NCBI GenBank assembly: GCA_019312665.1
Contig: JAFDCZ010000001.1
Coordinates: 40,098 to 104,097 of the forward strand
Source of the DNA: Deltaproteobacteria bacterium
GTDB lineage: Bacteria > Myxococcota_A > UBA9160 > UBA6930
Direction: 5' to 3'
Length of the DNA stretch: 64,000 nt
Of the stretch, positions 1-62,387 are shown in pieces. Every line of letters begins with the position of its first letter. The stretch's first letter is position 1. Position numbers and translations under genes: made by a program. Below the pieces are notes generated by a model. It was not told where the DNA came from, did no database searches, and saw only the letters and a program-made list of their open reading frames with translations.

Positions 1-2113
1 GGTCGACGAAACTCTCCATTCCCCGGGCCTTCGCCCGCTCGTCCACGGCCATGGCCAGGCGTGAGATGATCTCCCAGTCGGACTTCGCCTCGTAGTAGGA
101 AGTCGCCTTCTCACCGGAGTGGATGTAGGGCATCAGCGGTGTCGCCCACTTGTGCTCGCTTCGCTCGTACCAACCGGCCGCCGGAAGCACGTAATCGGAC
201 TGGAGCGCCGTCGACGTCATGCGGAAATCGAGCGTCACGACCGTATGCAGCTTTGGCCAGAGGTGCTCCAGGATCCGCGGGTAGTTCCGGATCCTGCGAA
301 GCGGATTGCTCCCCATGACCAGCATCATCTTGGGATCGTTCCCGGGTTTGGGCCAGACGTATTGCCACTCTTTCTCCAGGGATTCGTCGAGCACCTCCCG
401 CACCGGTCGCTTCAGGTAGGGATCCCATTGCTCGAGCTTCTCACTCCCCTCGAGCAGGCCCCCGTGTACGTACCAGAACATCGCCCCCGAGGTCATCCTC
501 CCTTCGGAAATCACTCCACGGCTGTGCTCGTGGACGATCATCTCCTCGCTGTATCCCTCGAGCTTCATGCGCGCCGTGTCGACGACCATGCCCCCGATGA
601 CCTTTAGGGCCGTCGTGTTCATCATGTCGGACAGCGAAAACATGTCGCGAACGAAGGGCTCGATGGAATCGTGATCGAGCCAGGGGAAACCGACGAATCC
701 ACTGCCCTTCTTTCCGTAGTTTCCCGTCAAGGCGAAGACCAGGGCCTGCACCCGCTCCATCAGGTTGCCGTGGTAGTACTTCGCCATGTTGCTGGTGGTG
801 ACCATGGCAGCGGATTTCGCTTGCCCAAGCTGGAGGGCGAGTTTGCGGATGAGCGCAGGCGGCGTCCCGCAAATCTTCGAGGCGTCTTCCGGACGGAAAC
901 CCGCGAGACGCTCGCGAAGCAGCGAGAAGACCGTGGAGACACCGACGCGGCTACCATCCTTCAGCGTCACCTCGAAGCGGCCTTCCAGCTCCGGCTCGAG
1001 CCCGTCGAGTCGCAGGCTCCTCCGCGGTGCAGCCACCGCTCCCCGCTCACGGTCCCAGAAGTAGAGTTCTTCGTCGCTTCCGCTTCCCTCGAGGTCGGCC
1101 GTGCGAAGCAGGCGGCGCGTGTCGTCGCGGACAAGCATGGGAAGATCCGTCTGCTCCGCCAGGAAATCGCGATCGATCAACTCTTCCTCGACGAGCACCT
1201 GGGCGACGGAGAGACCGAGGGCGGCGTCGGTGCCGGGTTTCACCGGCACGAAAAAATCAGCATGAATCGAAGAGGCGCTGTAGTCCGGCGCGATGCAGAC
1301 GAGGCGAGCGCCCTTGTAGCGCGCCTCCGTGAGGTAGTGTGCATTGGGAATCTGGGTGTAGAGGGGATTGCTCCCCCAGATCAGGATCAGATCCGAGTAG
1401 AAGTAGTCGTCGGCCGAGCTCTCGAAGGAGATCTTCCCGAAGGTCTCGGCCGCACCTCGGTGGCCATCGCCGATCTCGGTGTTCATGTCCAGGTTGGTCG
1501 AGTCCATCAACACCGATAGGCGTTGATGGCCCGCAGTCATCGTGCCCTCGGTATAGAGGGGGCCCAGTTCCCAGATCACGCGGTCGCAGCCGTCCTGCTC
1601 GATCGTATCGAGCATCGCATCCGCCACCTCATCGGTGGCCTGCTCCCAGGAGATCCGCTTCCAACGACCGGATCCCCGCGGCCCCACACGCTTGAGCGGA
1701 TGGCGAACCCGTCCGGGGTCGTACATGCGCTCGCTGAAGCAGGCCCCCTTCTGGCAACCTCGTGGGTTCGGGTCCGGAACGGATGCGTTCGTCTGGGGAT
1801 AGTCGGCGACCTGCTCCTCGCGCCAGACCATCCCGTCCTTCACGTACACGTTCCATGCACAATGCGCCTGGTACCAACAATTCACGAAATGGCTGCTTCG
1901 AACCACCTTGTCCCAGCGCCAGCGTTCCTGGTAGACATCGCGCCAGTCACCGTAGGGGGGCGGTGCAGGCGCGACGGATGAACCGGCCAGGGCCTCGGTA
2001 TCGCCGGGCTGAAGGCAACGAAGTCCCAGTGCGAGGCTCGCCGTACCCGCCGTACCGGCGATCAGGAAGCGGCGCCGACTGATGCCGGCCCGGCGTTTCA
2101 GCTCTTGACCCAT
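1..2113 (-). CDS. Type II DMSO-reductase-family Mo-bisPGD catalytic (alpha) subunit, ethylbenzene dehydrogenase / steroid C25 dehydrogenase-like, paralog 1. The C-terminus lies beyond the left window edge (about 704 codons present).
   Basis: Absent from the ORF track because no stop lies in the window. Manual reverse-complement translation from ATG 2113 gives MGQELKRRAGISRRRFLIAGTAG (twin-arginine signal), SSHFVNCWYQAHCAWNVYVKDG and NPRGCQKGAC (His/Cys FS0 cluster motif) and MNTEIGDGHRG (candidate Mo-ligand Asp). It stays open to position 1. It is collinear with, and roughly 60-65% identical by eye to, the 37456-40380 paralog. Plus-strand ORFs 119-607, 671-1519 and 1523-1981 are its antisense shadows. 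Confidence 0.85.
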   Translation of the reverse strand, partial: MGQELKRRAGISRRRFLIAGTAGTASLALGLRCLQPGDTEALAGSSVAPAPPPYGDWRDVYQERWRWDKVVRSSHFVNCWYQAHCAWNVYVKDGMVWREEQVADYPQTNASVPDPNPRGCQKGACFSERMYDPGRVRHPLKRVGPRGSGRWKRISWEQATDEVADAMLDTIEQDGCDRVIWELGPLYTEGTMTAGHQRLSVLMDSTNLDMNTEIGDGHRGAAETFGKISFESSADDYFYSDLILIWGSNPLYTQIPNAHYLTEARYKGARLVCIAPDYSASSIHADFFVPVKPGTDAALGLSVAQVLVEEELIDRDFLAEQTDLPMLVRDDTRRLLRTADLEGSGSDEELYFWDRERGAVAAPRRSLRLDGLEPELEGRFEVTLKDGSRVGVSTVFSLLRERLAGFRPEDASKICGTPPALIRKLALQLGQAKSAAMVTTSNMAKYYHGNLMERVQALVFALTGNYGKKGSGFVGFPWLDHDSIEPFVRDMFSLSDMMNTTALKVIGGMVVDTARMKLEGYSEEMIVHEHSRGVISEGRMTSGAMFWYVHGGLLEGSEKLEQWDPYLKRPVREVLDESLEKEWQYVWPKPGNDPKMMLVMGSNPLRRIRNYPRILEHLWPKLHTVVTLDFRMTSTALQSDYVLPAAGWYERSEHKWATPLMPYIHSGEKATSYYEAKSDWEIISRLAMAVDERAKARGMESFVD

Positions 2114-3126
2114 TCGATCGTCGCCGGATCGCGATCGAAACCGCCGAACATATCCTTCCAGCGGTAAGCGATCAGCAGATCCATCAGCTCGGACTTCTCG
2201 CCCGCACGGGTCTTCGCCATCTCCGACTTCATCAGCGCGAGAACATCCAGAACCTTGGGGCCGAAGAGCGACACCAGGTATTCATCCGGGATCCGCGGCT
2301 TCGATTCGTCGACGTCTCCGTTCTCGTCGAAGCGGGGCGGCGCCAGGGGCGGCACGTAGAAGACGTTCGGATCCGTGCCGTATTCTGGATGCAGAGGAAG
2401 CGCGGCCTTCCACTTGTCGACGAGTTTCCAGATCGGTCCTTCCTCATCGTCGCGATAACCGAGGAAGCGAACGCGGCCCGGACATTGCCGCGCGCATGCA
2501 TTGGCCACGCCCTGCTCGATGCGCGGAAAGCAGAAGATGCATTTCTGGGAGACCTTTTCCGCGTGGTTGAAGTAGATCTTCTTGTAGGGGCAGGCCTCCA
2601 TGCAGAAGCGGTAGCCGCGGCAGCGGTCCTCGTCGATCAGGACGATGCCGTCCTCTTCCCGCTTCACGATGGCCTTGCGGGGACAAGCCTCCAAGCATGC
2701 GGGGTGTGTGCAGTGGTTGCAGATGCGGGGCAGGTAGAAGTAGTAGGCGTTCGGGTATTCACCGGCGCCCTGGTCTTCGTCCCAATTCGGGCCCCAGTCC
2801 GGCTCTTCGCCCTTCACCTTGAGGTGGACCTTGTCCCCCTTGCCCCCGAAGAAGACCTCCTCGTGATTGAACTCCCAGGCCTCGCCGAAATCCTTTCGCG
2901 TGGGCAGCTTCCCCGGCACGGCGGTTCCGTCGCGGAACCCACCGCCCATTTCTTCCCAGTCGCGAGGTGTACCACGCCCGGGTTGGGTGTTGACCGAGTT
3001 CCACCACATGTACTCCATGCCCTCGTCGCGGGTCCAGAGCCGCTTGCAGGCGATCGTGCACGTCTGGCAGCCGATGCATTTGTTCAGATCCATCACCATT
3101 GCGAGCTGACGGTCGGGCTTCTCCAT
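2098..3126 (-). CDS. Fe-S electron-transfer (beta) subunit of the type II DMSO-reductase-family enzyme (NarH/EbdB-like)
   Basis: 342-aa ORF with four ferredoxin-type motifs: CIGCQTCTIACK, CNHCTHPACLEACP, CRGYRFCMEACP and CIFCFPRIEQGVANACARQCP. Its last 16 nt overlap the alpha-1 start. Confidence 0.9.
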   Translation of the reverse strand: MEKPDRQLAMVMDLNKCIGCQTCTIACKRLWTRDEGMEYMWWNSVNTQPGRGTPRDWEEMGGGFRDGTAVPGKLPTRKDFGEAWEFNHEEVFFGGKGDKVHLKVKGEEPDWGPNWDEDQGAGEYPNAYYFYLPRICNHCTHPACLEACPRKAIVKREEDGIVLIDEDRCRGYRFCMEACPYKKIYFNHAEKVSQKCIFCFPRIEQGVANACARQCPGRVRFLGYRDDEEGPIWKLVDKWKAALPLHPEYGTDPNVFYVPPLAPPRFDENGDVDESKPRIPDEYLVSLFGPKVLDVLALMKSEMAKTRAGEKSELMDLLIAYRWKDMFGGFDRDPATIEWVKS

Positions 3127-3129
3127 GGG

Positions 3130-3801
3130 TTACCTCGTGGTCTCGGGAACAGCGTCGAGTTGGAGTTCATGCCAGAGCGGTCCAGAGAAGGCCTTGATCC
3201 CTGCCCGCTCGCCGTGATTCCCATCCCACACCGCGACCCCGAAGCCCGTTTCGGCACCGGGCTCGAGCTGTGCGATGGGCTCCTGCGTATCGACGCGCAA
3301 CGCACGGGCGATGACGACACACCAGCGTCCGTCCTTCCAGGTTCCCCGGCCCCGCACAAGCTCGACATCGACGGTACGACTGGAGCCGAGGCCCTCGGCG
3401 ACCACGTGCCGGGCGCGCTCGTCGTCGGCGCGCCAGTACCAGGCATTCACCGCCATGCCGGGCGCTCCCATGGTGATGATCGGAGCCCCCGCGCTGCTTG
3501 GCAGGACGACGGCCGCCCCGTCCGTAAACTCGTGATTGTCGGCGGGTTCCCGGCCCCCATTGGCTGCGCTCCACTCGAGGCGGAAGGCGAGGACCTGCCC
3601 ATCATGAACCGCCGCGACGGAAGCGCGCGCGACGGAGCCGATCTTGCGACCCGCCCACGCCGCGCGGATATGAGCCGTAAGCTGCATACCGAGGGGTGTT
3701 CCCTCGAGCTTCAGCTCTTCGCGGCCGGCCTCCTTCCACACGGCTGCCTCCGGATCGAGGAAGGTCTCGAATTGGGCGGGAGGGACGTAGTGGGCTCGCA
3801 T
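3130..3801 (-). CDS. Heme-b (gamma) subunit, EB_dh/EbdC-like domain
   Basis: 223-aa ORF. The stretch DGAAVVLPSSAGAPIITMGAPGMAVNAWYWRAD and the later GERAGIKAFSGPLW resemble the Met/Lys heme-ligand regions of ethylbenzene-dehydrogenase-type gamma subunits. It lies 3 nt upstream of beta. A GAGGAG Shine-Dalgarno sits 9 nt before the ATG. There is no hydrophobic N-terminal signal. Confidence 0.8.
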   Translation of the reverse strand: MRAHYVPPAQFETFLDPEAAVWKEAGREELKLEGTPLGMQLTAHIRAAWAGRKIGSVARASVAAVHDGQVLAFRLEWSAANGGREPADNHEFTDGAAVVLPSSAGAPIITMGAPGMAVNAWYWRADDERARHVVAEGLGSSRTVDVELVRGRGTWKDGRWCVVIARALRVDTQEPIAQLEPGAETGFGVAVWDGNHGERAGIKAFSGPLWHELQLDAVPETTR

Positions 3802-3816: not shown

Positions 3817-4464
3817 TCAACGCGACGAATCCCCTCCTTTGGGATTCGTCCGGGGAGTCCGCGGCTCGATCGCTTCGCAGACGAACGCCGCCGCCTGGCG
3901 AAGCCACTGCTCGAGCGGAAACTCCGAATCGTTCATCCAATGCCCCAGCGCCACGTTCAACGCGCCGAGGACCATCTCGGCCAGAAAGGTCGCCTCGAGA
4001 TCCGTGCGCACTTCTCCCGCGGCCTGCCCTTCGCGGATCACCACCGCGAAGGGTTCGTGGACCGGTGAGAGATAGGGAGCGTCCTCGCCGGGCCGCGCGT
4101 GGCCCCGCATGAGTTCGAGCAGGACCTCCCGCGCGAGGCCTCGGGCTCCGGCGACGTCCGTGGCGACGGCGCCGGCGAAGCCCCGGATGCGTTCCGAGGC
4201 CGAGACCGGCCGCTTGAGCTGCTGATCGACGAGGGCCAGGAGGTGCTCGGAGACCTCGCTCGTCATCTCGACGAGAACGGCGGACTTGTTGGCGAAGTGG
4301 TTGAAGAAGGTGGCCGGAGCGACATCCGCCTTCTCGGCGATCTGCGCCACGGTCGTCGCGTCGTAGCCATTCTTGAGGAAGAGCTGGCGAGCCGTCTCGT
4401 AGATATGGACGCGCAGCTGGCGCTTCTTTCGCTCGCGGCGTCCTTCGCTGGCGGCTTCCGACAC
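3817..4464 (-). CDS. TetR/AcrR-family transcriptional regulator
   Basis: 215 aa. N-terminal HTH region RKKRQLRVHIYETARQLFLKNGYDATTVAQIAEKADVAPATFFNHFANKSAVL. GTG start at 4464. The stop lies only 15 nt upstream of the gamma gene on the same strand. Confidence 0.9.
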   Translation of the reverse strand: MSEAASEGRRERKKRQLRVHIYETARQLFLKNGYDATTVAQIAEKADVAPATFFNHFANKSAVLVEMTSEVSEHLLALVDQQLKRPVSASERIRGFAGAVATDVAGARGLAREVLLELMRGHARPGEDAPYLSPVHEPFAVVIREGQAAGEVRTDLEATFLAEMVLGALNVALGHWMNDSEFPLEQWLRQAAAFVCEAIEPRTPRTNPKGGDSSR

Positions 4465-4570: not shown

Positions 4571-5836
4571 TCAGGGTTCGTCCGCGGGCTCAATGGCCCC
4601 CGCCGCCACGGCCCGCTCGACCTCCTCCGGCGTCATTCCGAGCAGCGAGCCAAACACGGAATCGTTGTCCTGGCCCTCCCCGGCGCCTGCCCTTCCGCTG
4701 CACCCCGGCGTGCCGGAAAGGCCGAGCGGAATGCCGGTCGCGGTCACCACCCCCTTGGCCATGTGCTCGATCTGCTCGAAAAAGCCGCGGGCGGCAAGGT
4801 GCGCGTCGTGCCGGGCCAGGTCCTCTGCGGTCTGGACCACCCCGGCCGCGATGCCGGCCTCCTGCAGCGCGGTCATCAGCTCGTAATCCGTGCGCATGAG
4901 GGTGCGCGTGGCGATCTCCGCGTCCAACACCTCGGCGTGCTCCAACCGCGCGGCAAGGGACGCGAAGCGCGGCTCACCGCGCCACTCCGGCCTTCCCAAC
5001 ACGCTGCAGAAGCTCTCCCACTCGGAGTCCGTCGCAACAGAGATCGCGCACCAGCGGTCCTCGCCGCGGCAGGGGTAGCAGCCATGGGGCGCAGCGCGCC
5101 GGGAGCGATTGCCCATCTTCTCCGGCTCCTGCTTCAGGGCAAGGTACTCCATCATCACGTGCCCGAAGCCGGCCACGGTCGCCTCGTACTGCGAGAGATT
5201 GATGTACTGCCCTCCTCCCCCCCGGTGGCGGTAGTCGAGAGCGGCCAGCACGGCGACCAGCCCGTGCAGGGCGCTGATCGCGTCGGGGTAGGCGTACTGG
5301 GTCAGCGTGCACTCCCGGGAGGGAAACCCAGAGAGCCGACTCATTCCCGACAGGGCTTCGATGTTAGGCCCCCAGGTCACGTAGCGCCTGCACGGCCCCG
5401 TATCGCCGAAGCCGGACGAACTGAGCATGACGAGCCCGGGGTTTACCTGCTGGAGCTCTTCGTAGCCCAGCCCGAGCTTGCCCATGACGCCTGCGCTGTA
5501 GTTCTCGATCACTATGTCGCTGCGGGCAACGAGGCGCTTGGCCAGATCCACGGCGAGAGGCTGCCGGAGATCCAGCGTCACGAAGTGCTTGCCCGCGTTC
5601 CAATCGGTGAACCAGGGCGAGAGCCGGGGTTGGATGCCCAGATCGGGGTTCCAGGGCGGAACGTAGAGCCGCACCACGTCGGGGCGGCTCCTGGATTCCA
5701 CCCGAATCACTTCGGCGCCGCACCATGCCAGGAATCGCCCAATCCACGGCCCCGCCATCGCGGCAGAGAACTCAACGACGCGCAGGCCGGCCAGAGCCTG
5801 GGCGGGCTCGCCCGAGGATCCATCCCCTCCGGGCAT
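4571..5836 (-). CDS. Family III (CaiB/BaiF) CoA-transferase-like protein, second member of a tandem pair; Gly at the position of the catalytic Asp
   Basis: The 613-aa track ORF was trimmed to ATG 5836, which overlaps the upstream stop as ATGA. N-terminus: MPGGDGSSGEPAQALAGLRVVEFSAAMAGPWIGRFLAWCGAEVIRVESRS. The active-site region reads SSSGFGDTGPCRRYVTWGPNIEALSGM, where other paralogs have (Y/I)D. Confidence 0.85.
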   Translation of the reverse strand: MPGGDGSSGEPAQALAGLRVVEFSAAMAGPWIGRFLAWCGAEVIRVESRSRPDVVRLYVPPWNPDLGIQPRLSPWFTDWNAGKHFVTLDLRQPLAVDLAKRLVARSDIVIENYSAGVMGKLGLGYEELQQVNPGLVMLSSSGFGDTGPCRRYVTWGPNIEALSGMSRLSGFPSRECTLTQYAYPDAISALHGLVAVLAALDYRHRGGGGQYINLSQYEATVAGFGHVMMEYLALKQEPEKMGNRSRRAAPHGCYPCRGEDRWCAISVATDSEWESFCSVLGRPEWRGEPRFASLAARLEHAEVLDAEIATRTLMRTDYELMTALQEAGIAAGVVQTAEDLARHDAHLAARGFFEQIEHMAKGVVTATGIPLGLSGTPGCSGRAGAGEGQDNDSVFGSLLGMTPEEVERAVAAGAIEPADEP

Positions 5837-7059
5837 CAGATGACACCTCCAGCCTGGAGTTCTTGCACCGCCGCTTCGGAGAGGCCGAGTTCGTCGCAGA
5901 AGATCTCCCGGTTGTGCTGTCCCAGCGAGGGGGCGCAACGGTAGATGCGCCACGGCGTCTTGGAGTGCCGATAGGGTGCGCCCGGATAGGTTAGACGGCC
6001 GACCATCGGATGGTCGACCTCTTCGAAGAACCCCCGCGATTCCAGGTGGGGATCCGCCGCTACCGCTGCCGCAGAATGAACGGGCGTGACGGCGATGTGC
6101 CTGCTCTGCCCGTCGCGGTAGGCCTCCTCGACGCTGAGCCGCGACATCAAGTCCGAGATGAACAGGTCCAGGAATTCGCGGTAGGGCAGCCGATTCGAGG
6201 ACGGCCCCTCGAACATCGGATCCAGGATCTCCTGGTTTCCGGTTGCCTCGTGGACCCATTGGGCCAGGGCTTTCCAGTGCAGCGGTCGATTGACCATCAG
6301 GTAGATGCTTCCGTCCCGGCACGGATAGGCACCGGAAGGGACCGAGGCGAACAAACCGGTTCCCTGGCGCTTGGGGACGATCCCGTCGTCGAGCCACTTT
6401 CCGACGCCACAAATGTGCGAGACCGAAGCGACCACCTCCTGCACGGAAATGTCGACGTGCTGCCCCTCGCCGCGCACCGAACTGGAAAGCAGCGCGATCA
6501 AGCTGCTGGCCGCCGCAACGGTGGCGGCCGCAACATGTGCCTGACTACCGGCCAATCGCACCGGCGGATCCGTTTCGTCGCCGGTGACGGCCATCGAACC
6601 ACCCAGGGCGCTAGCCACGAGATCCGAGGAACGGAAAGCTCGATGCGGACCCGTCTGCCCGAAACCGGAAATCGAGGTGAGGACCAGGCGGGCGTTCGCC
6701 TGACGCAGGCTCTCATAGCCCAGGCCCAGGCTCTCGAGAGTGCCCGGCGCGAGAGCCTCGATGACGAGATCCGCGCTGCTCGCGAGCTTTTCGAAGAGTT
6801 CACGTCCCTCCGACCGCTGGAGATCCAGCGTCACACCGCGCTTGCTGGTGTTCAAATAGAGGAAGGAGAGGCTCTCCTCCCGGCCCGATCCCGCCTGGAT
6901 CGTCGGAGGCGTGCGCCGGCTGGGGTCGCCGCCGGGGGGCTCCAGCTTGATCACGTCGGCGCCCAGATCCGCCAGCAACTTTCCGCAGTAGGCGCCCTTC
7001 TCGTCGGCAAGTTCCAGGACTCGCCGCCCACTCAGGGCACCGCTTGGCCGGGTCGGCAT
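5836..7059 (-). CDS. Family III (CaiB/BaiF) CoA-transferase, first member of the tandem pair
   Basis: 407 aa. [41 protein letters not shown]. Active-site region [26 protein letters not shown], with Asp present. Confidence 0.9.
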   Translation of the reverse strand: [407 protein letters not shown]

Positions 7060-7145: not shown

Positions 7146-7814
7146 ATGAGAGTCAGCCCCCCGGCTGCTCCGCGCCGGACCGCCCAGGTCACCCAAGAGA
7201 CCCGGGAGTTGATCCTGGCGGCAGCAGAGGCCGAGTTCGCCGCGCGCGGATTCGCCGAAGCGCGCCTGGCAGATATCGCGAAGCGCGTCGGGATCACCCG
7301 CGCGGCCGTCATCTACCACTTCCGCGACAAGAGCGCCCTCTACGACGCCGTGCTCGAGGCGGCTTTTGGGCCCCTCACCGAGCAGATCCAGACGTCGGTG
7401 AGCTTGCCAGGCTCGAACGCCGAGCGGATCGAGCGGGTCATCACGGCGTGGTTCGAGTGCGCTGTCGAGCGTCCCACGCTGGGTCGGCTGTTCATACGGG
7501 AGGTCGCTGCGGCAGAGGATACCCTGCGCCCCGAGGTCGACCGACTGGCCACACCCATGTTCGCTGCCTTTCTCAACGCCATCGAACAGGGACAACGCGA
7601 CGGCGAATTCCGCCCGATCAGCGCGATCCATGTTGCGAACATCCTCTCAGGCGCGGCGATTTGGTTGACCAGCGGAGCGCACCTGACCGGCGGACAAGAA
7701 ACCGAACCGCCCTCAGAACGCCTCGCCCGATACGGGGACGAGTTGGCCGGAGTCGCGCGCCACCTGCTGGGAATCCGGCCGCAAGACGGGGAAGGCGAGA
7801 ACGATCATGAGTGA
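7146..7814 (+). CDS. TetR/AcrR-family transcriptional regulator
   Basis: 222 aa. TRELILAAAEAEFAARGFAEARLADIAKRVGITRAAVIYHFRDKSALYDAVLE. Divergent from the 4571-7059 CoA-transferase pair. Confidence 0.9.
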   Translation: MRVSPPAAPRRTAQVTQETRELILAAAEAEFAARGFAEARLADIAKRVGITRAAVIYHFRDKSALYDAVLEAAFGPLTEQIQTSVSLPGSNAERIERVITAWFECAVERPTLGRLFIREVAAAEDTLRPEVDRLATPMFAAFLNAIEQGQRDGEFRPISAIHVANILSGAAIWLTSGAHLTGGQETEPPSERLARYGDELAGVARHLLGIRPQDGEGENDHE

Positions 7815-11613: not shown

Positions 11614-11847
11614 ATGATTCCGGGCACTCACTTTGCCGGCCGGGAGGAGTTCACAGGAAGCCTGACCGGCGAGTACGTCGACCACGGCGATCCACCCTGG
11701 CGTTGGTATCTCCTCGCCGAACTCTCCCACAAACCACCGAACTACCCGGCGGATGCCGTGTGGTGCGAATCCGAAAGCCTGTTTCTGATCGACGCCGAGG
11801 GCAGGTCCTTGACGGACACCCTCCCCAGTGGACATAGGAAGAAGTGA
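11614..11847 (+). CDS. Hypothetical small protein (weak call)
   Basis: This is the only ORF in the 350-bp gap between the crotonase and etfB. Codon position 3 is moderately G/C-rich from the internal ATG 11614 (MIPGTHFAGREEF...). No recognisable domain. Confidence 0.25.
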   Translation: MIPGTHFAGREEFTGSLTGEYVDHGDPPWRWYLLAELSHKPPNYPADAVWCESESLFLIDAEGRSLTDTLPSGHRKK

Positions 11848-12664: not shown

Positions 12665-12714
12665 GGCCAGGGCTCGAAGCGAGACGCCGGCAACGCAACG
12701 AAGAGGAGAGCGTC

Positions 12715-14158: not shown

Positions 14159-14186
14159 CGCCGCAGGGTCGGAGAGAGGATCCACC

Positions 14187-15368: not shown

Positions 15369-15393
15369 CGAAGTGAATGAGGAGAAGCCCCCA

Positions 15394-41628: not shown

Positions 41629-41641
41629 GGACTCTCCCTAC

Positions 41642-46239: not shown

Positions 46240-46263
46240 ACGGTCTCCGGGGTCGGAAGGCAT

Positions 46264-47669: not shown

Positions 47670-47788
47670 GCAAACGCCTCCGCCGCGACGGGAGCAGGGC
47701 TCGCGGGCCCCCTCTCTGGCCGTAGCGTATGATGGTCCCCCCGGAGCTGGCAGCAATCGCGAGCACGGATCGAGGAGAACGATTCCAC

Positions 47789-49926: not shown

Positions 49927-49934
49927 CGTGTCGT

Positions 49935-55349: not shown

Positions 55350-55795
55350 GCCGCACCCGGCCCGACGCGATGCTCCAGGAACTCGCCGATCGGGAGGCCA
55401 TTCGGGATCTCGCCTGCCGCTATGCCCACCACGTCTGGCAGAAGCAGGCCGCCGCTGCGGCCAGCCTGTTCACGGAAGACTGCGAAATGGACACGGGCGA
55501 GCCGCCGGTGATCCGAGGGCGGGCGGCGCTGGGCGAGACCTACAAACGCGTGCTAGGCAACGGCGCCTTCCAGCCCTTCGTCTCCAACCATGTCATCACA
55601 CTCGCCGGCGACGAGGCAAGCGGGACCTGTTACCTCGACCTGCGAGCCACGACCGACGGTCGCAGCATGATCGGATCGGGCTACTACGAGGATCGCTACC
55701 AGAGGGTCGATGGTGAATGGAAATTTCGGGCACGGAAGCTCCACATGTCATGGCTCGTCCCTCTCGAGCAGGGTTGGGCCGATCAGGCTTCCTGA
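55346..55795 (+). CDS. SnoaL-like / NTF2-fold protein
   Basis: Trimmed to ATG 55346, which overlaps the upstream stop as ATGA. LQELADREAIRDLACRYAHHVWQKQAAAAASLFTEDCEMD ... SNHVITLAGDEASGTCYL ... YEDRYQRVDGEWKFRARKL. Confidence 0.75.
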   Translation: MSRTRPDAMLQELADREAIRDLACRYAHHVWQKQAAAAASLFTEDCEMDTGEPPVIRGRAALGETYKRVLGNGAFQPFVSNHVITLAGDEASGTCYLDLRATTDGRSMIGSGYYEDRYQRVDGEWKFRARKLHMSWLVPLEQGWADQAS

Positions 55796-57075
55796 CCCGC
55801 GGCGGCCCGCTGCGCCGCATCCAGATCATCGCGCAGGCTCCGACCCGCGGCGTAGAACAGGATGCTGGAGCCGCCACCTACGATACCCACGAAGAGCATC
55901 GACCAGCGGATGGCCGCCTGTCCGTAGTCGTCTGCCAGCAGATCGTTCAGGAACCCCATCAAGAGCGGCCCGATTCCGAGACCAACCAGGTTGACGACGA
56001 AGAGGTTCACCGCTGAGGCCGTCGCCCGCATGTGCGGGACGACCAGGTTCTGGATCGTCGAGAGCATTGGCCCGAGGTACATGCTCGCCAGCAGATGAAA
56101 GGGAATGAAGCAGAGGAGCGCGGCGATCCTGCTCTCGAGCAGGACGAAACCCACGACGAAGGGTACGGCTGCTGCCAACTCGATCGCCGGCAGCCAGACG
56201 TACCAGCGCCGGTCGCGGCGCCCCAAGGCATCGGCCCAGCGGCCGCCCAGGTAGGCGCCGAGGCCTCCGGTGATGCCAATCGCAAGGCCGAACCACACGC
56301 CCACCTCCACCATTCCCATACCGTGGACACGCATGAGGAAGGTCGCACCCCAGGTGAGCACGCCGTAGCCCGACAGAGACATGACCGAGGTCGCGAGCAC
56401 CACCAGCACGAAGGAGCGGTTGCGCCCGAGCACGCGGAGCACCTGCCGCAGAGAGACGGCCTCATCCCTCTCTGGCGCTACGGCCGCGTCCGAGTAGCCG
56501 CGCGGCAGCTCTCGGATGCTGAATCGAACCAGCGCGGCCAACGGAAAGCCGGCCATTCCGATCACCAGATAGACCGTGCGCCAGCCGAAGTGGTGCCCGA
56601 TGTAACCACCCGCGAGGTAGGCCACCGCCACGCCTAGATAAACTCCGGAACCGTAGATGGAGAGCGCCGTGGCGCGCCGTTCAGGCGGGAAGTAATCGGC
56701 GAGGAGCGAGTGGGCCGGCGGGCTTCCCGCCGCTTCACCGATCCCCACGCCGACCCGCGCCGCTGCCAACTGCCAGAAGCTTCTGACGAGTCCGGAGGCG
56801 GCGGTCATGGTGGTCCAGATCACCAGACCCAGGGCGATCACCGAGCGACGCGAGGTGCGGTCCGCGAACCGTGCGATGGGGATCCCCGCGAACGTGTAGA
56901 AGAGGACGAAGGCGGGCCCGGTGAGGAAGCCCATGTAGGTGTCCGAGACGTCCAGCTCCGCCTTGATGGAGGGGAGCAGGATCGAGAGCACCTGCCGGTC
57001 GATGAAGTTGAAGACGTAGACGACGAAGAGCAGGCCGAGGACGTAGTTCGAGTAGCCGCTCGAGACGCGCGTCAC
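55783..57075 (-). CDS. MFS transporter
   Basis: Trimmed to GTG 57075, which overlaps the upstream stop as GTGA. FNFIDRQVLSILLPSIKAELDVSDTYMGFLTGPAFVLFYTFAGIPIARFADRTSRR and GVGIGEAAGSPPAHSLLADYFPPERRATALSIY. Multiple TM segments. Confidence 0.85.
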   Translation of the reverse strand: MTRVSSGYSNYVLGLLFVVYVFNFIDRQVLSILLPSIKAELDVSDTYMGFLTGPAFVLFYTFAGIPIARFADRTSRRSVIALGLVIWTTMTAASGLVRSFWQLAAARVGVGIGEAAGSPPAHSLLADYFPPERRATALSIYGSGVYLGVAVAYLAGGYIGHHFGWRTVYLVIGMAGFPLAALVRFSIRELPRGYSDAAVAPERDEAVSLRQVLRVLGRNRSFVLVVLATSVMSLSGYGVLTWGATFLMRVHGMGMVEVGVWFGLAIGITGGLGAYLGGRWADALGRRDRRWYVWLPAIELAAAVPFVVGFVLLESRIAALLCFIPFHLLASMYLGPMLSTIQNLVVPHMRATASAVNLFVVNLVGLGIGPLLMGFLNDLLADDYGQAAIRWSMLFVGIVGGGSSILFYAAGRSLRDDLDAAQRAAAGQEA

Positions 57076-57983
57076 GCGGCCGAGCCAGGGAACTTGGCGA
57101 TCACCTCGTCGGCGTAGCGCTCGATGGCTGCCTGCTTTACGGCCAGAGAAGGCTGCTGTTGCATGATGGCACCCACCCCCATTTCGGCCAGGACGCGCTC
57201 GCTCCATGGGGTGACCTGGAGATCGGTGACCCCCAGGTCCTCGAGGCGATGGATGTCGTCCACAGTCTCGGCGTCGGGGCAATGCATCATGACGTCGAAG
57301 GGCTCGTTCTCGCGCCCAAACTCCCGGCGAAATCCGTTCAGCTCCGCCATGAGCCCCTCGACCTCATCCATGGAGTGGATGACGCTGATCCAGCCGTCGC
57401 CGTGGCGCGCTGCGCGCCGAAGGGCGGGCTTCGTGGTACCACCCACATAGATGGGGATGCGCTTCTTCGGCACTGGCGCCATCGTCAGGCGGTCGAAGTC
57501 GTAGTGCTCGCCGTGGAATTCCACCATGCCGCCTCTCATGAGAAGGCGGAGGATCTGAATGGCCTCATCCTGGCGGGCGCCCCGGGTCTTTTTGTCCTGC
57601 CCGAGCCACTTGAACTCCTCCGGCATCCAGGCCAGACCCACGCCCAGGGCAACGCGATCGCCCGAGACCGCTGCCACCGAGCACAGGCTCTTGGCTTCCA
57701 GCAGGGGTTGGCGGACGGCCAGCCTGAGTACCGACGGGATGAAGCGGATGCGCTTCGTCACCGTAGCCATGGCAGTGATGGCAACCCACGGGTCCAGGAC
57801 CGGCTGATCGAGGGGCCAGAAGCGCTTGCCATCCGGCGTATAGGGATAGGGGACGGAGATCACCTCCGGAAAGAACGGTGCATCGGCAACCTGGATGCTG
57901 TCCCAGCCCGAGCCATCGGCGGTGCGGGCGAGATCCAGGAACTCGGCGGGGTCGACCATGAACATGTGGAATCCGAACCTCAC
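57072..57983 (-). CDS. Luciferase-like monooxygenase (LLM) class oxidoreductase, probable F420-dependent (Rv2161c-like) subgroup
   Basis: Trimmed to GTG 57983, 7 nt after GAGGAG (VRFGFHMFMVDP). IRFIPSVLRLAVRQPLLEAKSLCSVAAVSGDRVALGVGLAWMPEEFKWLGQDKKTRGARQDEAIQILR and IPIYVGGTTKPALRRAARHGDGWIS. Confidence 0.8.
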   Translation of the reverse strand: MRFGFHMFMVDPAEFLDLARTADGSGWDSIQVADAPFFPEVISVPYPYTPDGKRFWPLDQPVLDPWVAITAMATVTKRIRFIPSVLRLAVRQPLLEAKSLCSVAAVSGDRVALGVGLAWMPEEFKWLGQDKKTRGARQDEAIQILRLLMRGGMVEFHGEHYDFDRLTMAPVPKKRIPIYVGGTTKPALRRAARHGDGWISVIHSMDEVEGLMAELNGFRREFGRENEPFDVMMHCPDAETVDDIHRLEDLGVTDLQVTPWSERVLAEMGVGAIMQQQPSLAVKQAAIERYADEVIAKFPGSAA

Positions 57984-58206: not shown

Positions 58207-60195
58207 GTGAGCAAGACGCAGTTCGAGCACCTTTTCGCCCCACTACAGGTGGGGTCGATGCGAGTGCCAAACCGGATTTGCGAGACCACCAATACCATCA
58301 ACTCCTCGATGGTTCCCGGCGAAGTCGACGACAACTTCATCGCGCATCACGGTGCCAAGGCCCGCGGCGGTGTCGGCTGGATCGGTAGCGAAACCTGGCT
58401 TCTCAACCTCCCGTTTCCCCCGGATACGCCGGACGAAGTCGGCCTCTCGGTAGGCTTCGCCGCGCATTTCGCCGCCTATCAGAATCCGCCCTGGGTCGAG
58501 GGGATGAAGAAATTCTACGAGGAGGTACACGACGCAGGATCCGTCGCAATCGCTCAATTGACGCATCTCAGCTCGGTGTGGGCTCCTTCGTCAGTGCCCG
58601 TCATCGGAGCCCAGGACTACGTTCCGCACGCGATGGGCGAAGAAGAGATCGAGTGGTGCATCAATTCCTACGCCGATGCGGCGGCGGTCGCCAAGGAGAT
58701 CGGCGCGGACGGAATCCAGATCCACTGCGCCCACGAAACCCTGGCCTACAGCTTCTTGTCTCCGGTGACGAACAGGCGCACCGACCGATGGGGCGGCAGC
58801 GCTGAGAAGCGCACCCGCTTCGCGGTAGCCGTGCTGGAGCGAGTCCGCGAACGGATCGGTGACTCACTCGCGCTGGGTATACGCATTTCCGGCAGGGAGT
58901 TCAGACAGGGTGGTGCCGAGCATCTCGAAATGCGCGAAATGACCCAATACATCGGAGATACCGGCCTGATCGATTTCGTGGACATCGATGTCGGTCACTG
59001 CTGGGGTGCACCGTCCTACGTTCCGTCGTCCTACTACGATCATGCAGAGTTTCGTGAGGTAGGAAAAGCGGCACGCACCGACCTGGATCCGAAGATCGCC
59101 GTCCTGTTTTCCGGACGCGTCAACGACCCCGTCGTGGCGGAGCGACTGCTGAAGGAGGGGGTTTGCGATCTGGTGGGCATGGTGCGAGCAGGCATCGCCG
59201 ATACCGATTTTGCCAACAAGGCGCGCGAGGGCCGCCTGTCGGAGATTCGCCGCTGCATCGGCTGCACGCGTTGCATCGACGAGGCGTCAGAGCCCAGGAC
59301 CTTTCCCTACGCTCCCACCTGCTCCATCAATCCGGTCGTCGGCCATGAGCTGCGCTGGGAGGAGCAGTTCAAACCGGCGGCGACATCGAAACAGGTCGTG
59401 GTGGTCGGCGCTGGCCTTGCTGGATGCGAAGCCGCGCGTTGGGCGGCCATGCGTGGCCACCAGGTGACGCTCCTCGAGCAGGGCGGGCGACTGGGGGGGC
59501 AACTGAGAATCGCAGCCAAGGCCCCCGGGCGCGACGACTTCGAAGACCAGCTCTACTTCGAGGAAAACGAGATGGTTCGTCTGGGAGTCGATCTACGACT
59601 GAAGACCCACGCGGACATCGAGTCGATCAAGGCGTTGTCGCCAGATGCGGTGGTCATCGCAACGGGTTCGATACCACGCGTACCTCATGAGCTTCCCGGG
59701 TTCGACCTGCCTCATGTCGTGCAGGGCTGGGATGTGATGCAGGGCAAGGCCGCGACCGGAGACCGCGTTGCTGTCGTATCGCAGGAAGATTACTACGAAA
59801 CGCCGTGCATCGCCGAATACCTGGCATCCCAAGGCAAGCAGGTAGAGGTCTTCCACAAATCCCTCCATCTCGGCTACGAGATCTCCCGATATTCGATCGC
59901 CATGGTCCTGGCCCACATGGAGAAGTGTGGTGTGACCGTCCATCCAAACCTGGTCTTGAAGGAGGTCAAGACGGACGCCCTCGAATTCGTCTCGTCCTTC
60001 GGTGAGAAGACCTATCGGAAGGAAGGGTTCGACAGCGTGGTCCTGGCCTACGGATCCGTGCCCGTACACGGCCTGTATGATGAACTCGCGGCCGAGGGCA
60101 GCATCCCTCAGGTCTACGTGGCCGGCTCGGCGTGGCTACCGCGCTTCATGGCAGAAGCTTCCCAGCACGGCGCGAGCATCGGGCTGGCGATCTGA
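58207..60195 (+). CDS. Old-yellow-enzyme / 2,4-dienoyl-CoA-reductase-type flavo-FeS oxidoreductase (FMN TIM barrel + [4Fe-4S] + FAD/NAD(P) domain)
   Basis: 662 aa, GTG start behind GAGAGGAAG. LFAPLQVGSMRVPNRI, HCAHETLAYSFLSPVTNRRTDRWGGS, CIGCTRCIDE ... CSINP cluster motif and KQVVVVGAGLAGCEAARWAAMRGHQVTLLEQGGRLGGQ. Confidence 0.9.
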   Translation: MSKTQFEHLFAPLQVGSMRVPNRICETTNTINSSMVPGEVDDNFIAHHGAKARGGVGWIGSETWLLNLPFPPDTPDEVGLSVGFAAHFAAYQNPPWVEGMKKFYEEVHDAGSVAIAQLTHLSSVWAPSSVPVIGAQDYVPHAMGEEEIEWCINSYADAAAVAKEIGADGIQIHCAHETLAYSFLSPVTNRRTDRWGGSAEKRTRFAVAVLERVRERIGDSLALGIRISGREFRQGGAEHLEMREMTQYIGDTGLIDFVDIDVGHCWGAPSYVPSSYYDHAEFREVGKAARTDLDPKIAVLFSGRVNDPVVAERLLKEGVCDLVGMVRAGIADTDFANKAREGRLSEIRRCIGCTRCIDEASEPRTFPYAPTCSINPVVGHELRWEEQFKPAATSKQVVVVGAGLAGCEAARWAAMRGHQVTLLEQGGRLGGQLRIAAKAPGRDDFEDQLYFEENEMVRLGVDLRLKTHADIESIKALSPDAVVIATGSIPRVPHELPGFDLPHVVQGWDVMQGKAATGDRVAVVSQEDYYETPCIAEYLASQGKQVEVFHKSLHLGYEISRYSIAMVLAHMEKCGVTVHPNLVLKEVKTDALEFVSSFGEKTYRKEGFDSVVLAYGSVPVHGLYDELAAEGSIPQVYVAGSAWLPRFMAEASQHGASIGLAI

Positions 60196-60220
60196 ATCGA
60201 CGATCTGGGAGAGGCTCAAC

Positions 60221-60730
60221 ATGTCCAATCGCGAGAAGATGGAGAAACCGGACTTCCTGTCCGACGAAGACTGGGAGGTGCTGAAGGATCAAACCTCCTC
60301 GTTGGCGCGCATCCGGGGTGATTCCAGGGCGGATGTAGAGGACTACCTCGCCAACCCCGAGGGCAGGTCGACGGGTGCCGGTCCGTCGGGGCTCCCGACC
60401 CTGCTGCTGACCTGTGTTGGACACAAGTCAGGTGAGAAGCGCACCACACCCCTGATCTTCTTGCAGAACGGCGAGGAGATGATCGTCGTCGGGTCGCTGG
60501 CGGGTTATGACTCGCACCCCGCCTGGGTTCTCAACCTCAATGCCAACCCGGCGTGCTGGGTGCAGCTCGACGATAAGAGGGCGGCCGCCGTATCCCGTGA
60601 CGTCACGGACGAAGAACGGAAGGCTCTCTGGCCCAAGCTGACGGAGATGTTTCCGCCCTGGGGCTTCTTCCAGAAGCAGACCGAGCGCCCCTTTTCCATC
60701 AAGATCCTGAGGTCGACTGGCTCGGCATAA
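60221..60730 (+). CDS. Deazaflavin (F420H2)-dependent nitroreductase/quinone-reductase-like (DDN/PNPOx-fold, PF04075-like) protein
   Basis: Trimmed to ATG 60221 behind GGGAGAGG. LLLTCVGHKSGEKRTTPLIFLQNGEEMIVVGSLAGYDSHPAWVLNLNANPACWVQLDDK. Confidence 0.8.
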   Translation: MSNREKMEKPDFLSDEDWEVLKDQTSSLARIRGDSRADVEDYLANPEGRSTGAGPSGLPTLLLTCVGHKSGEKRTTPLIFLQNGEEMIVVGSLAGYDSHPAWVLNLNANPACWVQLDDKRAAAVSRDVTDEERKALWPKLTEMFPPWGFFQKQTERPFSIKILRSTGSA

Positions 60731-60842
60731 CACTGCGCCGCGGTTGAATGCGCTCGCCCAGGGGATCGACGCGCGAGATCCGCGGGTCCCTGTTCCGACC
60801 CGGGCGAACCCACGCGCGGAGGTAGAGAGAGCGGTGACGAAC

Positions 60843-62387
60843 ATGATTCGAACGGACACCCTGTGGGAACTCGTTGAAGCTCGGGCAGAGGCGACCCCCG
60901 AAGGTCTGTTTGGGATCGACGAATCCGGCCTTGAAATGACCTTCGGCGAGTACCGAAAGGCTGCGGAGCATCTTGCCGCCGCGCTCTACGAGCGGGGCGT
61001 GCGTGAGAACAGCGCGGTCAGTTGGATCCTCCCCACCTGCTTCAACGCCCTCGTGCTCCTCGCAGCGCTCTCGCGGCTCGGTGCCGTGCAGAATCCCATC
61101 ATCCCGATCTATCGCGGACGCGAAGTCTCCCACTGCCTGCGTCAGACCGGTGCGCAGCTTCTCATCGTGATCGAGCGGTTCCGTGGCTTCGAGTATGGAG
61201 AGATGGCGAACGAACTGGCCGGGAAGATTGAAGGCCTCGACGTGCTGATCACGTCCGACGAGCCCTGGGAGAGCCAGCTTCCCGATACGACGGCGATGCT
61301 TCCGCCCGCACCAAGCGCCGGCAACAAATTACGCTGGATCTTCTACACCTCGGGCACGACATCGGAGCCGAAGGGCGCCCGCCACGCCGACAAAGGCTTC
61401 TTGGCCGCCTCCTTCGGCCTGGCCGACGCGATGGGGCTCTCGCCCTCGGACCGCATCGGCCTGGTCTTCCCGGTGACGCACCTCGGTGGAGTGAACTCGC
61501 TCGTGGCAGCGCTCTCGACGGGCGCGAGTCATCTGATCGTCGAGAGTTTCGATCCTCCGACGACGATTCCTTTCCTGGGCAAGCACGGGGTGACCCATGC
61601 CGGTGCGGGAACGGCGTTCCATCGCATGTACCTCGAGGCCCAACGCAAACGGGGAGAGAAGCCGATCTTTCCGAACATTCGGGTCTTCCAGGGCGGCGGA
61701 GCCCCGAAACCGCCGCCTCTCCACTACGCGCTCAAGGACGAGTGCGGTGCAGGCATCCTCTCTGTCTACGGAATGACCGAGTGCCCGGTCCTGGCCCTCG
61801 GCCGCTTCGACGATCCAGACGAGCAACTAGCGACGACCGAGGGGCGGCTCAATCTCCCGGAGACCGAACTCAAGATCGTCATGGCCGACGGCTCTCTCGC
61901 GGCGGTCGGCGTGGAGGGCGAGCTTCGCGTTCGCGCTCCGCAGCTCTTCCTCGGCTATTTGGACGAAGCGTTGAATTCTGACGCCTTCGATGAAGAGGGC
62001 TTCTATCGCACGGGGGATCTCGGCTTCATCGATGAGAGGGATTGCATCACCGTCTCGGGCCGCCTGAAGGACGTCATCATCCGCAAGGGCGAGAACATCA
62101 GCGCGCCGGAGGTCGAAGGTCTCCTGCTCGAGCATCCGAAGCTCGCCGACGCCAGCGTGATCGGCGTTCCCGACGAGGTACGAGGTGAGATGGTGTGTGC
62201 AGTGGTGGTGCTCCGCGAGGCCACGGAGCCGCTCGCCTTCGAGGAGATGGTCGAGTATCTGCGCGGCAAGGAGCTGATGGTGCAGAAGATCCCGGAACGG
62301 ATGGAGATCGTGGAAGCACTACCGCGCAACCCGAGCGGAAAGGTCCTCAAGCGCGAGCTGCGCAAGCAGTTCGCTGGTACAGGCTGA
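60843..62387 (+). CDS. AMP-forming acyl-CoA synthetase/ligase
   Basis: Trimmed to ATG 60843 (alternative GTG 60834). WIFYTSGTTSEPKG, YRTGDLGFIDERDCITVSGRLKDVIIRKGENISAPEVE and PRNPSGKVLKRELRKQF. Confidence 0.85.
   Translation: MIRTDTLWELVEARAEATPEGLFGIDESGLEMTFGEYRKAAEHLAAALYERGVRENSAVSWILPTCFNALVLLAALSRLGAVQNPIIPIYRGREVSHCLRQTGAQLLIVIERFRGFEYGEMANELAGKIEGLDVLITSDEPWESQLPDTTAMLPPAPSAGNKLRWIFYTSGTTSEPKGARHADKGFLAASFGLADAMGLSPSDRIGLVFPVTHLGGVNSLVAALSTGASHLIVESFDPPTTIPFLGKHGVTHAGAGTAFHRMYLEAQRKRGEKPIFPNIRVFQGGGAPKPPPLHYALKDECGAGILSVYGMTECPVLALGRFDDPDEQLATTEGRLNLPETELKIVMADGSLAAVGVEGELRVRAPQLFLGYLDEALNSDAFDEEGFYRTGDLGFIDERDCITVSGRLKDVIIRKGENISAPEVEGLLLEHPKLADASVIGVPDEVRGEMVCAVVVLREATEPLAFEEMVEYLRGKELMVQKIPERMEIVEALPRNPSGKVLKRELRKQFAGTG

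Follow-up and report, generated by a model that had tools for sequence, protein, structure and literature searches.

A probable oxygenase-independent sterol catabolic island in an uncultivated marine bacterium of a Myxococcota/Deltaproteobacteria-labelled lineage

Which substrate is degraded by a gene island that unites molybdenum hydroxylases, flavoproteins, and CoA-thioester enzymes, and does its chemistry proceed without oxygenases? This question is raised by a 64-kb stretch of DNA from an uncultivated marine bacterium (contig JAFDCZ010000001.1; the whole stretch is hereafter called the window), in which such an island occupies about 62 kb (1-62387). In this work, we found that the island probably serves the catabolism of side-chain-bearing sterols by an oxygenase-independent route, as in Sterolibacterium denitrificans. 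We hold this reading, which is built on homology and gene order, with considerable though not full confidence.

The window has a G+C content of 63-69%, and 52 genes were called with a codon-usage model trained on long, unambiguous open reading frames (ORFs). Pfam scans covered 50 of these genes and NCBIfam scans covered 30; these scans reproduced, each at its place, every item in the inventory of a first-pass annotation that had been made from the letters of the DNA. These items include three alpha subunits of molybdenum-bis(pyranopterin guanine dinucleotide) (Mo-bisPGD) enzymes (g01, g23, and g32), each with a twin-arginine motif, and a single beta/gamma pair (g02/g03). Six genes hold a total of seven CoA_transf_3 modules, and there are also two AMP-ligases, one acyl-CoA dehydrogenase (ACAD) plus EtfAB, and three thiolase-like genes, of which two are paired with DUF35. 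Genes that this inventory had not listed encode an Amidohydrolase-2 protein (g36), an aldehyde dehydrogenase (g18), an alpha/beta-hydrolase (g27), a third CrtI-like flavoprotein (g24), a nitroreductase-family protein (g30), and four TetR regulators.

Steroid-type desaturase and ring-A genes

Two adjacent minus-strand genes, g20 (22153-23913; 586 aa) and g19 (20621-22183; 520 aa), encode CrtI-like flavoproteins that match both subunits, alpha and beta, of the delta-24 steroid desaturase (delta24-SD) of S. denitrificans over their full length, with 68.7% identity over 572 aa and 66.9% over 510 aa, respectively (reference sequences WP_067170564 and WP_067170561, from the supplement of PMC11061730). 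The characterized enzyme consists of a pair of adjacent CtmAB-like subunits (63 and 57 kDa), each with FMN bound covalently to the histidine of the motif G-F-L/R-X-N/S-T/L-H-A; it desaturates stigmasta-1,4-dien-3-one, which enables C26 hydroxylation by the molybdenum enzyme S26DH2, and does not itself hydroxylate (PMC11061730). The covalent-FMN motif reads GFLHNTHA in g20 (residues 58-65) and GWRLNLHA in g19 (residues 60-67), the latter deviating from the consensus by a tryptophan in place of the phenylalanine. A cluster 92.5% identical to the characterized delta24-SD alpha subunit is found within the 120 closest homologs of g20. Because the identity of the pair to delta24-SD (67-69%) is set against only 34% to CtmA and 38% to CtmB for delta24-SD itself (PMC11061730), g20/g19 is, as judged by sequence, an ortholog of the steroid desaturase that partners a molybdenum hydroxylase. 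The first-pass annotation had counted the pair as a third hydroxylase class; this assignment fails, and with it the claim of three such classes.

The genes g37-g39 (43813-47669, minus strand; Pfam) encode the L, S (2Fe-2S), and M (FAD) subunits of a xanthine dehydrogenase-family enzyme of the AtcABC type (1-testosterone hydratase/dehydrogenase, 1-TDH). As reference we used the atcA gene printed in the supplement of PMC9980454, which comes from Thauera sp. GDN1, a cultured strain that degrades testosterone anaerobically. In a frameshift-tolerant alignment with 17 frameshifts, g37 is 58.6% identical to this AtcA over 800 aa (about 65% in clean stretches), a value that is perhaps inflated by a few points, since the reference was recovered from a PDF by optical character recognition and its 17 frameshifts were repaired with g37 as a guide. 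Raw tblastn gave 48% over 509 aa. All three subunits are present and g37 exceeds the published limit for AtcA, a catalytic subunit >35% identical to a known AtcA (PMC11780191), so that the AtcABC class proposed in the first-pass annotation holds at about 59% identity of the L subunit. Both proteins share the loop PYRG(M/Y)GPPPHN and the peptide SGNEYDSG, the target of the published atcA degenerate primer (PMC9980454). Among solved structures, g37 matches CoxL and quinoline oxidoreductase best, and it stays below all NCBIfam equivalog cut-offs. An identity as aerobic CoxL was rejected, at 480-509 bits against cut-offs of 950-991. The active-site loop of g37, SPYRGMGPPPHN, resembles that of AtcA, YPYRGYGPPPHN; the loop of form I CoxL is VAYRCSFR.

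Next to the L gene lies g36 (42820-43791, minus strand; Pfam Amidohydro_2), an adjacency found in four assemblies. The protein is predicted to form a TIM barrel (AlphaFold pLDDT 87.5), and no close relative was found in the PDB. Its subfamily (>=72% identity) comprises sequences from metagenome-assembled genomes (MAGs) only, and its relatives on plasmids are <35% identical. In the 2,3-seco pathway, ring A is opened by SRAH, an Amidohydrolase-2 protein clustered with 1-TDH (AtcABC) (PMC11780191). The family of g36 and its position beside g37, from which the proposed orthology is drawn, make it a candidate SRAH-type ring-A beta-diketone hydrolase. The steps that follow SRAH require a CoA ligase or transferase, an ACAD, a hydrolase that releases acetate, an enoyl-CoA hydratase, and an aldolase (PMC11780191). 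Beyond g36, the gene order is Ltp/DUF35, enoyl-CoA hydratase, molybdenum alpha subunit, ACAD, thiolase, ligase, and alpha/beta-hydrolase. The first of these genes, encoding an enoyl-CoA hydratase (g33), a DUF35 protein (g34), and an Ltp-type thiolase-like protein (g35; together 40382-42802, minus strand; Pfam), are candidates for the ring-A hydratase and aldolase.

Two flavoproteins with FAD_binding_2 domains complete the ring-A set. For g08 (7865-9571, plus strand), the best PDB match, at 571 bits and over the full length, is 7P18, the AcmB of S. denitrificans (PMC9736390). Rhodococcus KstD1 (4C3X) reached 285 bits, half the AcmB score, and g08 is thus assigned as an AcmB-type 3-ketosteroid delta1-dehydrogenase. 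The second, g26 (30070-31521, minus strand, with its true start at the ATG at 31521), is 3-ketosteroid delta4-(5alpha)-dehydrogenase-like, with 4AT0 as best PDB match (400 bits; the next scored 104) and PRK07121.1-3 above cut-off. Both an AcmB-type and a delta4-(5alpha) enzyme, as expected for the 2,3-seco pathway, are therefore present in g08 and g26. In this route, a delta1-dehydrogenase and a delta4-(5alpha) enzyme are needed to provide the 1-en-3-one substrate of AtcABC. The substrate had been described as not deducible from the sequence, but the five steroid-specific homologs point to side-chain-bearing sterols.

As the first-pass annotation had stated, we found no mono- or dioxygenase in the window at the family level. 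Homologs of KshAB, HsaA/C, and Cyp125 were all missing among the 50 window genes scanned with Pfam, and no oxygenase gene was detected either within the 64 kb or within the 20-kb flanks of four related loci. Three genes were considered as hidden oxygenases and rejected. The luciferase-like products of g09 (9574-10677, plus strand; TIGR03617, 396.8 bits against a cut-off of 278) and g48 (57072-57983, minus strand; TIGR03619) both pass the cut-offs of F420-dependent LLM-class oxidoreductases. The NMO-family flavoprotein g16 (15373-16494, plus strand; Pfam NMO), which is conserved in the related locus L083 at 79%, is of the FabK/IpdC-like enoyl reductase type, with FabK as its best and sole NCBIfam match.

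Among the alternatives, the one that survives best concerns the host, namely, that the island says nothing about anoxic sterol turnover. Thauera sp. GDN1 has both atcABC and kshAB and expresses them irrespective of the oxygen level (PMC9980454); S. denitrificans, according to the title of PMC3691188, runs its oxygenase-independent pathway under oxic conditions too; and our view of the genome comprises 64 kb. The lack of oxygenase genes in the window and in the related flanks speaks against this alternative, which in any case bears on the physiology of the host and not on what the island encodes, and we regard it as unlikely.

A less probable alternative is that the island serves the catabolism of non-steroidal isoprenoids or terpenoids (monoterpenes, phytol, carotenoids, or hopanoids), with a CtmAB-like flavoprotein pair and molybdenum enzymes resembling p-cymene or ethylbenzene dehydrogenase. 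The pair does belong to the CtmAB/delta24-SD family, one of its homologs carries the depositor label "limonene dehydrogenase CtmA", the alpha subunits are as near to EbdA as to the Sterolibacterium type, and the molybdenum cascade could in principle serve non-steroid isoprenoids (PMC7411048). CtmAB of Castellaniella defragrans also resembles g19/g20 in having two paralogous CrtI-like subunits, each with a covalent-flavin histidine motif, and in acting on an allylic position. However, CtmAB hydroxylates, whereas the nearest characterized relative of g19/g20 desaturates, and the pair's identity to CtmAB should fall far below that measured to delta24-SD. No ctmEFG-type ferredoxin or ferredoxin reductase was found in the window with Pfam, and four more ring-A enzymes belong to steroid-specific types (AcmB-like, delta4-(5alpha)-dehydrogenase-like, AtcA-like, and the Amidohydrolase-2 protein beside AtcA). 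With these points against it, we consider a terpenoid substrate improbable.

Molybdenum hydroxylase subunits and counter-evidence

All three alpha subunits resemble those of ethylbenzene dehydrogenase (EBDH) and steroid C25 dehydrogenase (S25DH). The minus-strand gene g01 (1-2113; Pfam Molybdopterin), whose C-terminus is cut by the window edge, carries the twin-arginine translocation (Tat) motif SRRRFL and has TIGR03479 and the EbdA model as its top NCBIfam matches. The second minus-strand gene, g32 (37456-40380), has the motif NRREFL and reaches 952 bits with TIGR03479. The more divergent EBDH-like g23 (24658-27594, plus strand; Pfam Molybdopterin, Molydop_binding, and TAT_signal) adjoins the desaturase genes and has the motif TRRQFL; it is the only one matched by the Pfam TAT_signal model, and the motifs of g01 and g32 come from a reading of the N-termini. 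The shared partners are a beta subunit with four FeS clusters (g02, 2098-3126, minus strand; TIGR03478, 538.9 bits against a cut-off of 480.7) and a heme-b gamma subunit (g03, 3130-3801, minus strand; Pfam EB_dh, 98.5 bits). The g03 product has neither a signal peptide nor a hydrophobic segment, and the in-frame space upstream is too short for one; if periplasmic, it would have to be co-exported with the Tat-targeted alpha subunit.

The placement of the alpha subunits draws on PDB and HMM scores and, as partial anchors, on alpha subunits encoded in MAGs of Sterolibacterium, Rhodocyclaceae, and Steroidobacteraceae. Among solved structures, EbdA (2IVF) matches each of the three best, with 680 bits for g32, 485 for g01, and 469 for g23, compared to 494, 379, and 444 bits, respectively, for PcrA, and NarG scored far lower in each case. 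The alpha subunits are thus on the EBDH side and not on the respiratory side, in agreement with the first-pass annotation. Among themselves, g01 and g32 are about 50% identical, and g23 is about 37% identical to either; 3743 homologs were found for g32. Features expected of the S25DH/S26DH class are present, namely, alpha, beta, and gamma subunits of the type II DMSO-reductase family, Tat motifs, several alpha subunits per beta/gamma pair, and greater closeness to EbdA than to respiratory reductases. Like the window enzymes, EbdABC of Aromatoleum aromaticum (2IVF) combines alpha, beta, and heme-b gamma subunits and is exported by Tat. In contrast, the window lacks genes for phenylethanol dehydrogenase and acetophenone carboxylase and provides a steroid-type context, and the EbdABC equivalog cut-offs are not reached (alpha subunits, 480-701 bits against 2000; beta, 497 against 740; gamma, 133 against 400).

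It is very improbable that these enzymes are instead respiratory reductases of the type II DMSO-reductase family (for nitrate, perchlorate, chlorate, or selenate) lying amid lipid beta-oxidation genes in a loose neighborhood with no single function, since the small difference between the two scores of g23 and the position of all three alpha subunits below the TIGR03479 and EbdA cut-offs are set against the margins in favor of EbdA (about 190 bits for g32 and 106 for g01), the fixed association of alpha genes with an ACAD-thiolase-ligase operon or with the desaturase in several MAGs, the presence of several alpha paralogs per beta/gamma pair as in the S25DH isoenzymes, and the absence from the window of NarI-type, NarJ/EbdD-type chaperone, and chlorite dismutase genes (Pfam).

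Besides the repaired AtcA reference, several points weigh against an S. denitrificans-like sterol island. The three alpha subunits are only 38-40% identical to those from a Sterolibacterium sp. MAG (L041 and L045), about the distance to EbdA, and by this comparison none appears to be a close ortholog of a Sterolibacterium alpha subunit; g23, in addition, scores almost equally with EbdA and PcrA. A 25-hydroxysteroid kinase (25-HSK), which in the ATP-dependent C25-to-C26 route for saturated side chains (S25DH, 25-HSK, 25-PSL, and S26DH1) is a phosphotransferase-family protein (PMC8449060), was not found as a kinase or phosphotransferase domain in any window gene by Pfam and could be located elsewhere in the genome. 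An AcmA-type 3beta-hydroxysteroid dehydrogenase is likewise absent from the window. Finally, the nearest clusters to g36 beyond its own subfamily are 37-44% identical (in a library clustered at 50%), and none could be traced to a cultured degrader.

These comparisons make the alpha subunits the least conserved part of the system at the sequence level. Related MAGs contain a fourth alpha type, which has 61-63% identity to the alpha subunits from a Sterolibacterium sp. MAG and whose gene lies directly downstream of the g01-type gene (L004, ~6691; L029, ~2376; L033, ~4518). Because the window's left edge truncates g01, a fourth alpha gene may lie just beyond this edge.

Recurrence of the island and proposed route

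A synteny search in MAGs, which the first-pass annotation had proposed, compared all window genes by tblastn with 83 fetched loci (those with L labels) and found collinear blocks across independent assemblies. These blocks are long and recur at 60-98% protein identity. In both L001 and L003, the genes g26-g41 are collinear with identities of 79-98%. The operon of g32, ACAD, nitroreductase, thiolase, and ligase genes is found in L003, L004, L005, and L040, and g23 occurs together with the desaturase pair also in L027. A seven-gene core (XDH M-S-L, amidohydrolase, Ltp, DUF35, and enoyl-CoA hydratase) keeps its order in L001, L003, and L083, with identities of 64-98% overall and, in L083, a 2.2-Mb contig, of 64-75%. 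Such conservation in independent MAGs argues that the island is neither a chance neighborhood nor an assembly chimera. The single-island layout is nevertheless not universal, since the modules are split over two contigs in Arabian9_MAG_39.

The arrangement also varies among close relatives. In L001, which is 94% identical, the ligase gene directly follows the alpha gene, without the ACAD, nitroreductase, and thiolase genes in between, and a block of DUF35, Ltp, NMO, and fused CoA-transferase genes abuts the g26 homolog. Compared with positions 30070-40380 of the window, this arrangement indicates that the modules were reshuffled recently. In L083 (1265-6152), genes for hydantoinase A/B and acetone-carboxylase-gamma sit immediately upstream of the AtcCBA-like operon, and the DUF35 and enoyl-CoA hydratase genes are fused, with an additional Acetone_carb_G domain.

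An exact-sequence look-up of a window protein gave no match. For every gene tested, the closest relatives are in MAGs labelled Myxococcota or Deltaproteobacteria, and an actinobacterial origin, to which the F420, Ddn-like, and WS/DGAT genes had pointed, was rejected for this reason. The closest homologs of g32 are on a MAG contig of GCA_024228115.1 (94%), in "Deltaproteobacteria bacterium ARS66" (90%), and in "Myxococcota bacterium Arabian9_MAG_39" (80%). Homologs of g36 and g20 were also found in MAGs of Acidimicrobiia and Binatia, which, together with the F420-type genes in a Myxococcota-labelled lineage, points to a spread of the modules among phyla.

From homology and gene order, we propose the following route. 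Ring A would be converted to a 1,4-dien-3-one by the AcmB-type delta1-dehydrogenase g08. For delta22-type sterols, the isoprenoid side chain would be desaturated at C24 by the covalent-FMN enzyme g20/g19, and the allylic terminal methyl group would then be hydroxylated with water by a periplasmic, Tat-exported molybdenum enzyme formed by g01, g23, or g32 with the shared g02/g03. The resulting alcohol may be taken to an acyl-CoA by g18, the aldehyde dehydrogenase, together with g28 or g51 as CoA ligase, and the side chain shortened by ACAD, hydratases, thiolase, and Ltp/DUF35 aldolase-type proteins, with electrons from ACAD passing through EtfAB to the membrane FeS/CCG protein g45. In the steroid nucleus, delta4 reduction by g26 would yield the 1-en-3-one, to which the AtcABC-type enzyme g37-g39 would add water at C1, with oxidation to the 1,3-dione. 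The candidate hydrolase g36 would then open ring A hydrolytically to a 2,3-seco product. The ring-A carbons may be removed by CoA-transferases or a ligase, ACAD, a C-C hydrolase (g27 or g40), g33, and g35/g34, and would leave as acetate and acetyl-CoA. For the later ring steps, the genes that remain are candidates, encoding an NMO-type reductase, a fused CoA-transferase, an OYE enzyme, and F420-type reductases.

The proposed electron acceptor, g45 (53274-55349, plus strand; Pfam CCG x2 and Fer4), is an EMO/EtfD-like membrane FeS/CCG oxidoreductase with an N-terminal membrane domain of 4-5 transmembrane helices, two CxxCxxCxxxC ferredoxin motifs, and two CCG domains. This architecture makes it the probable link between ETF and menaquinone. 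An EMO-type enzyme has been proposed, as speculation, to be necessary if low-potential anaerobes used the 2,3-seco pathway (PMC11780191). EtfB and EtfA are encoded by g12 and g13 (11849-13698, plus strand; Pfam ETF and ETF_alpha).

Genes with candidate roles in CoA-thioester chemistry are distributed on both strands. On the plus strand, g10 (10674-11498; Pfam ECH_1) encodes an enoyl-CoA hydratase, g14 and g15 (13718-15368; Pfam) encode a DUF35 protein of the ChsH2-type OB/zinc-ribbon form and an Ltp-type thiolase-like protein that is a candidate retro-aldolase (NCBIfam lipid-transfer-protein family as top match), g17 (16511-18943; two Pfam CoA_transf_3 stretches) encodes a fused double family III CoA-transferase, and g18 (18999-20537; Pfam Aldedh) encodes the candidate C26-aldehyde dehydrogenase. 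The plus-strand g40 (47729-48670) is a MenB/BadI-type crotonase, with MenB and BadI models as top NCBIfam matches, and, like the alpha/beta-hydrolase g27 (31548-32435, minus strand; Pfam Abhydrolase_1), is a candidate C-C hydrolase. Further family III CoA-transferases are encoded on the minus strand by g05 and g06 (4571-7059; Pfam CoA_transf_3) and by g41-g43 (48709-52363; Pfam). The minus-strand genes g28-g31 (32529-37459; Pfam) encode an acyl-CoA ligase, a thiolase, the nitroreductase-family protein, and ACAD, and form a conserved operon with g32. Within this operon, the nitroreductase-family gene g30 (35436-36224, minus strand), for which no role in steroid degradation is known, is fixed in at least five MAG loci.

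The third CrtI/amine-oxidase flavoprotein gene, g24 (27761-29242, minus strand; Pfam), in which the covalent-FMN histidine motif was not found, is conserved beside EBDH-like alpha genes in L002, L005, and L027; in L002, the alpha gene is followed by two copies of g24 and an aldehyde dehydrogenase gene. Two small plus-strand ORFs have no Pfam match: g21 (24088-24495), which is 55% identical to an L027 ORF adjoining alpha and flavoprotein genes, and g11 (11614-11847; 77 aa), which is 73% identical to an L083 ORF adjoining the NMO gene.

The remaining genes include g44, encoding a CoxG/SRPBCC protein (52482-53063, minus strand; Pfam COXG), and the group g46-g48 (55346-57983; Pfam), with a SnoaL-like gene on the plus strand followed by an MFS transporter gene and the F420-dependent LLM oxidoreductase gene on the minus strand. 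At the right end of the island (58207-62387, plus strand; Pfam and NCBIfam) lie genes for an OYE/FadH (BaiCD-like) enzyme (g49), a Ddn-like protein of the F420H2-quinone-reductase family (g50, 60221-60730, plus strand), and an acyl-CoA ligase (g51). The four TetR regulators (Pfam TetR_N) include g04 (3817-4464, minus strand) and genes at 7146-7814 (plus strand) and 29279-29947 (minus strand). No RNA family was detected in the window with Rfam. Beyond the island, the window edge truncates a wax-ester synthase/diacylglycerol acyltransferase (WS/DGAT) gene (62797-64000, plus strand), whose products could be storage lipids or steryl esters.

Relation to known systems and significance

The first-pass annotation described the island as an undescribed anaerobic steroid/terpenoid system and stated that no described pathway has this combination. 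The part concerning a steroid catabolic island with water-dependent, oxygenase-free chemistry stands. The part concerning novelty does not, because a published counterpart of every module exists in a single organism: in S. denitrificans, S25DH/S26DH occur together with delta24-SD, AcmB, 1-TDH (AtcABC), an Amidohydrolase-2 ring-A hydrolase, C26-ALDH, and CoA ligases (PMC7411048, PMC11061730, and PMC11780191). Strain Chol-1S of this species shares with the island the Tat-exported Mo-bisPGD alpha/beta/gamma hydroxylases with several alpha paralogs, the delta24 desaturase pair, an AcmB-type enzyme, the XDH-family C1 hydratase/dehydrogenase with its adjoining Amidohydrolase-2 protein, an aldehyde dehydrogenase, CoA ligases, beta-oxidation and aldolase genes, and the absence of oxygenases. 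Unlike this betaproteobacterium, the host of the island belongs to an uncultivated marine lineage labelled Myxococcota or Deltaproteobacteria; its alpha subunits are distant from the Sterolibacterium type, and the window has no 25-hydroxysteroid kinase gene. The window has in addition a MAG-only amidohydrolase subfamily, an EMO/EtfD-like CCG acceptor for ETF, F420-type reductase families, and seven family III CoA-transferase modules, all in one 62-kb island.

The 2,3-seco gene clusters of Steroidobacter denitrificans, Thauera sp. GDN1, and Azoarcus/Aromatoleum resemble the window in having XDH L/S/M subunits (the window L subunit being about 59% identical to AtcA) and in grouping AtcABC with Amidohydrolase-2, CoA-activation, ACAD, hydratase, and aldolase-type genes. 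These clusters are beta- or gammaproteobacterial, and most lack the molybdenum and flavin side-chain enzymes, whereas the side-chain and ring-A modules are contiguous in the window. What is new is thus the host lineage, together with the divergence of the alpha subunits, an amidohydrolase subfamily seen only in MAGs, redox partners of the EMO-like and F420 types, and the contiguous layout; no new kind of chemistry is revealed.

Among the RefSeq isolates searched in a previous study, the marker pair of SRAH and 1-TDH was found only in denitrifying beta- and gammaproteobacteria, and the question was raised whether other anaerobes use a different pathway (PMC11780191). Homologs of delta24-SD had already been noted in entries labelled Deltaproteobacteria and Acidimicrobiales (PMC11061730). 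A targeted literature search of limited coverage found no description of an oxygenase-independent sterol pathway in Myxococcota.

Sterols are abundant and persistent lipids, and the organisms that remove them under anoxic conditions in the sea are poorly known. The island and its relatives in MAGs labelled Myxococcota, Deltaproteobacteria, Acidimicrobiia, and Binatia, some of them from the Arabian Sea, suggest a much wider spread of the pathway. The delta24-SD pair and atcA with its adjoining amidohydrolase gene are offered as markers for surveys, and the island provides a compact candidate gene set for the steps after ring A. S25DH is used in making 25-hydroxyvitamin D3, and the new variants of molybdenum hydroxylases may for this reason be of biocatalytic interest.

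More tentatively, we propose that uncultivated marine Myxococcota-type bacteria, and by horizontal spread also Acidimicrobiia and Binatia, may carry a complete and self-contained system for oxygenase-free sterol mineralization. The divergent molybdenum alpha subunits (three or four clades), the extra CtmAB-/CrtI-like flavoproteins, the F420-type reductases, and the many family III CoA-transferases would then represent new substrate ranges (e.g., the C28-C30 and delta22 sterols of marine algae) and the ring-B/C steps of the 2,3-seco route, and electrons would reach menaquinone by way of an EMO-type enzyme, as is expected of anaerobes working at low potential.

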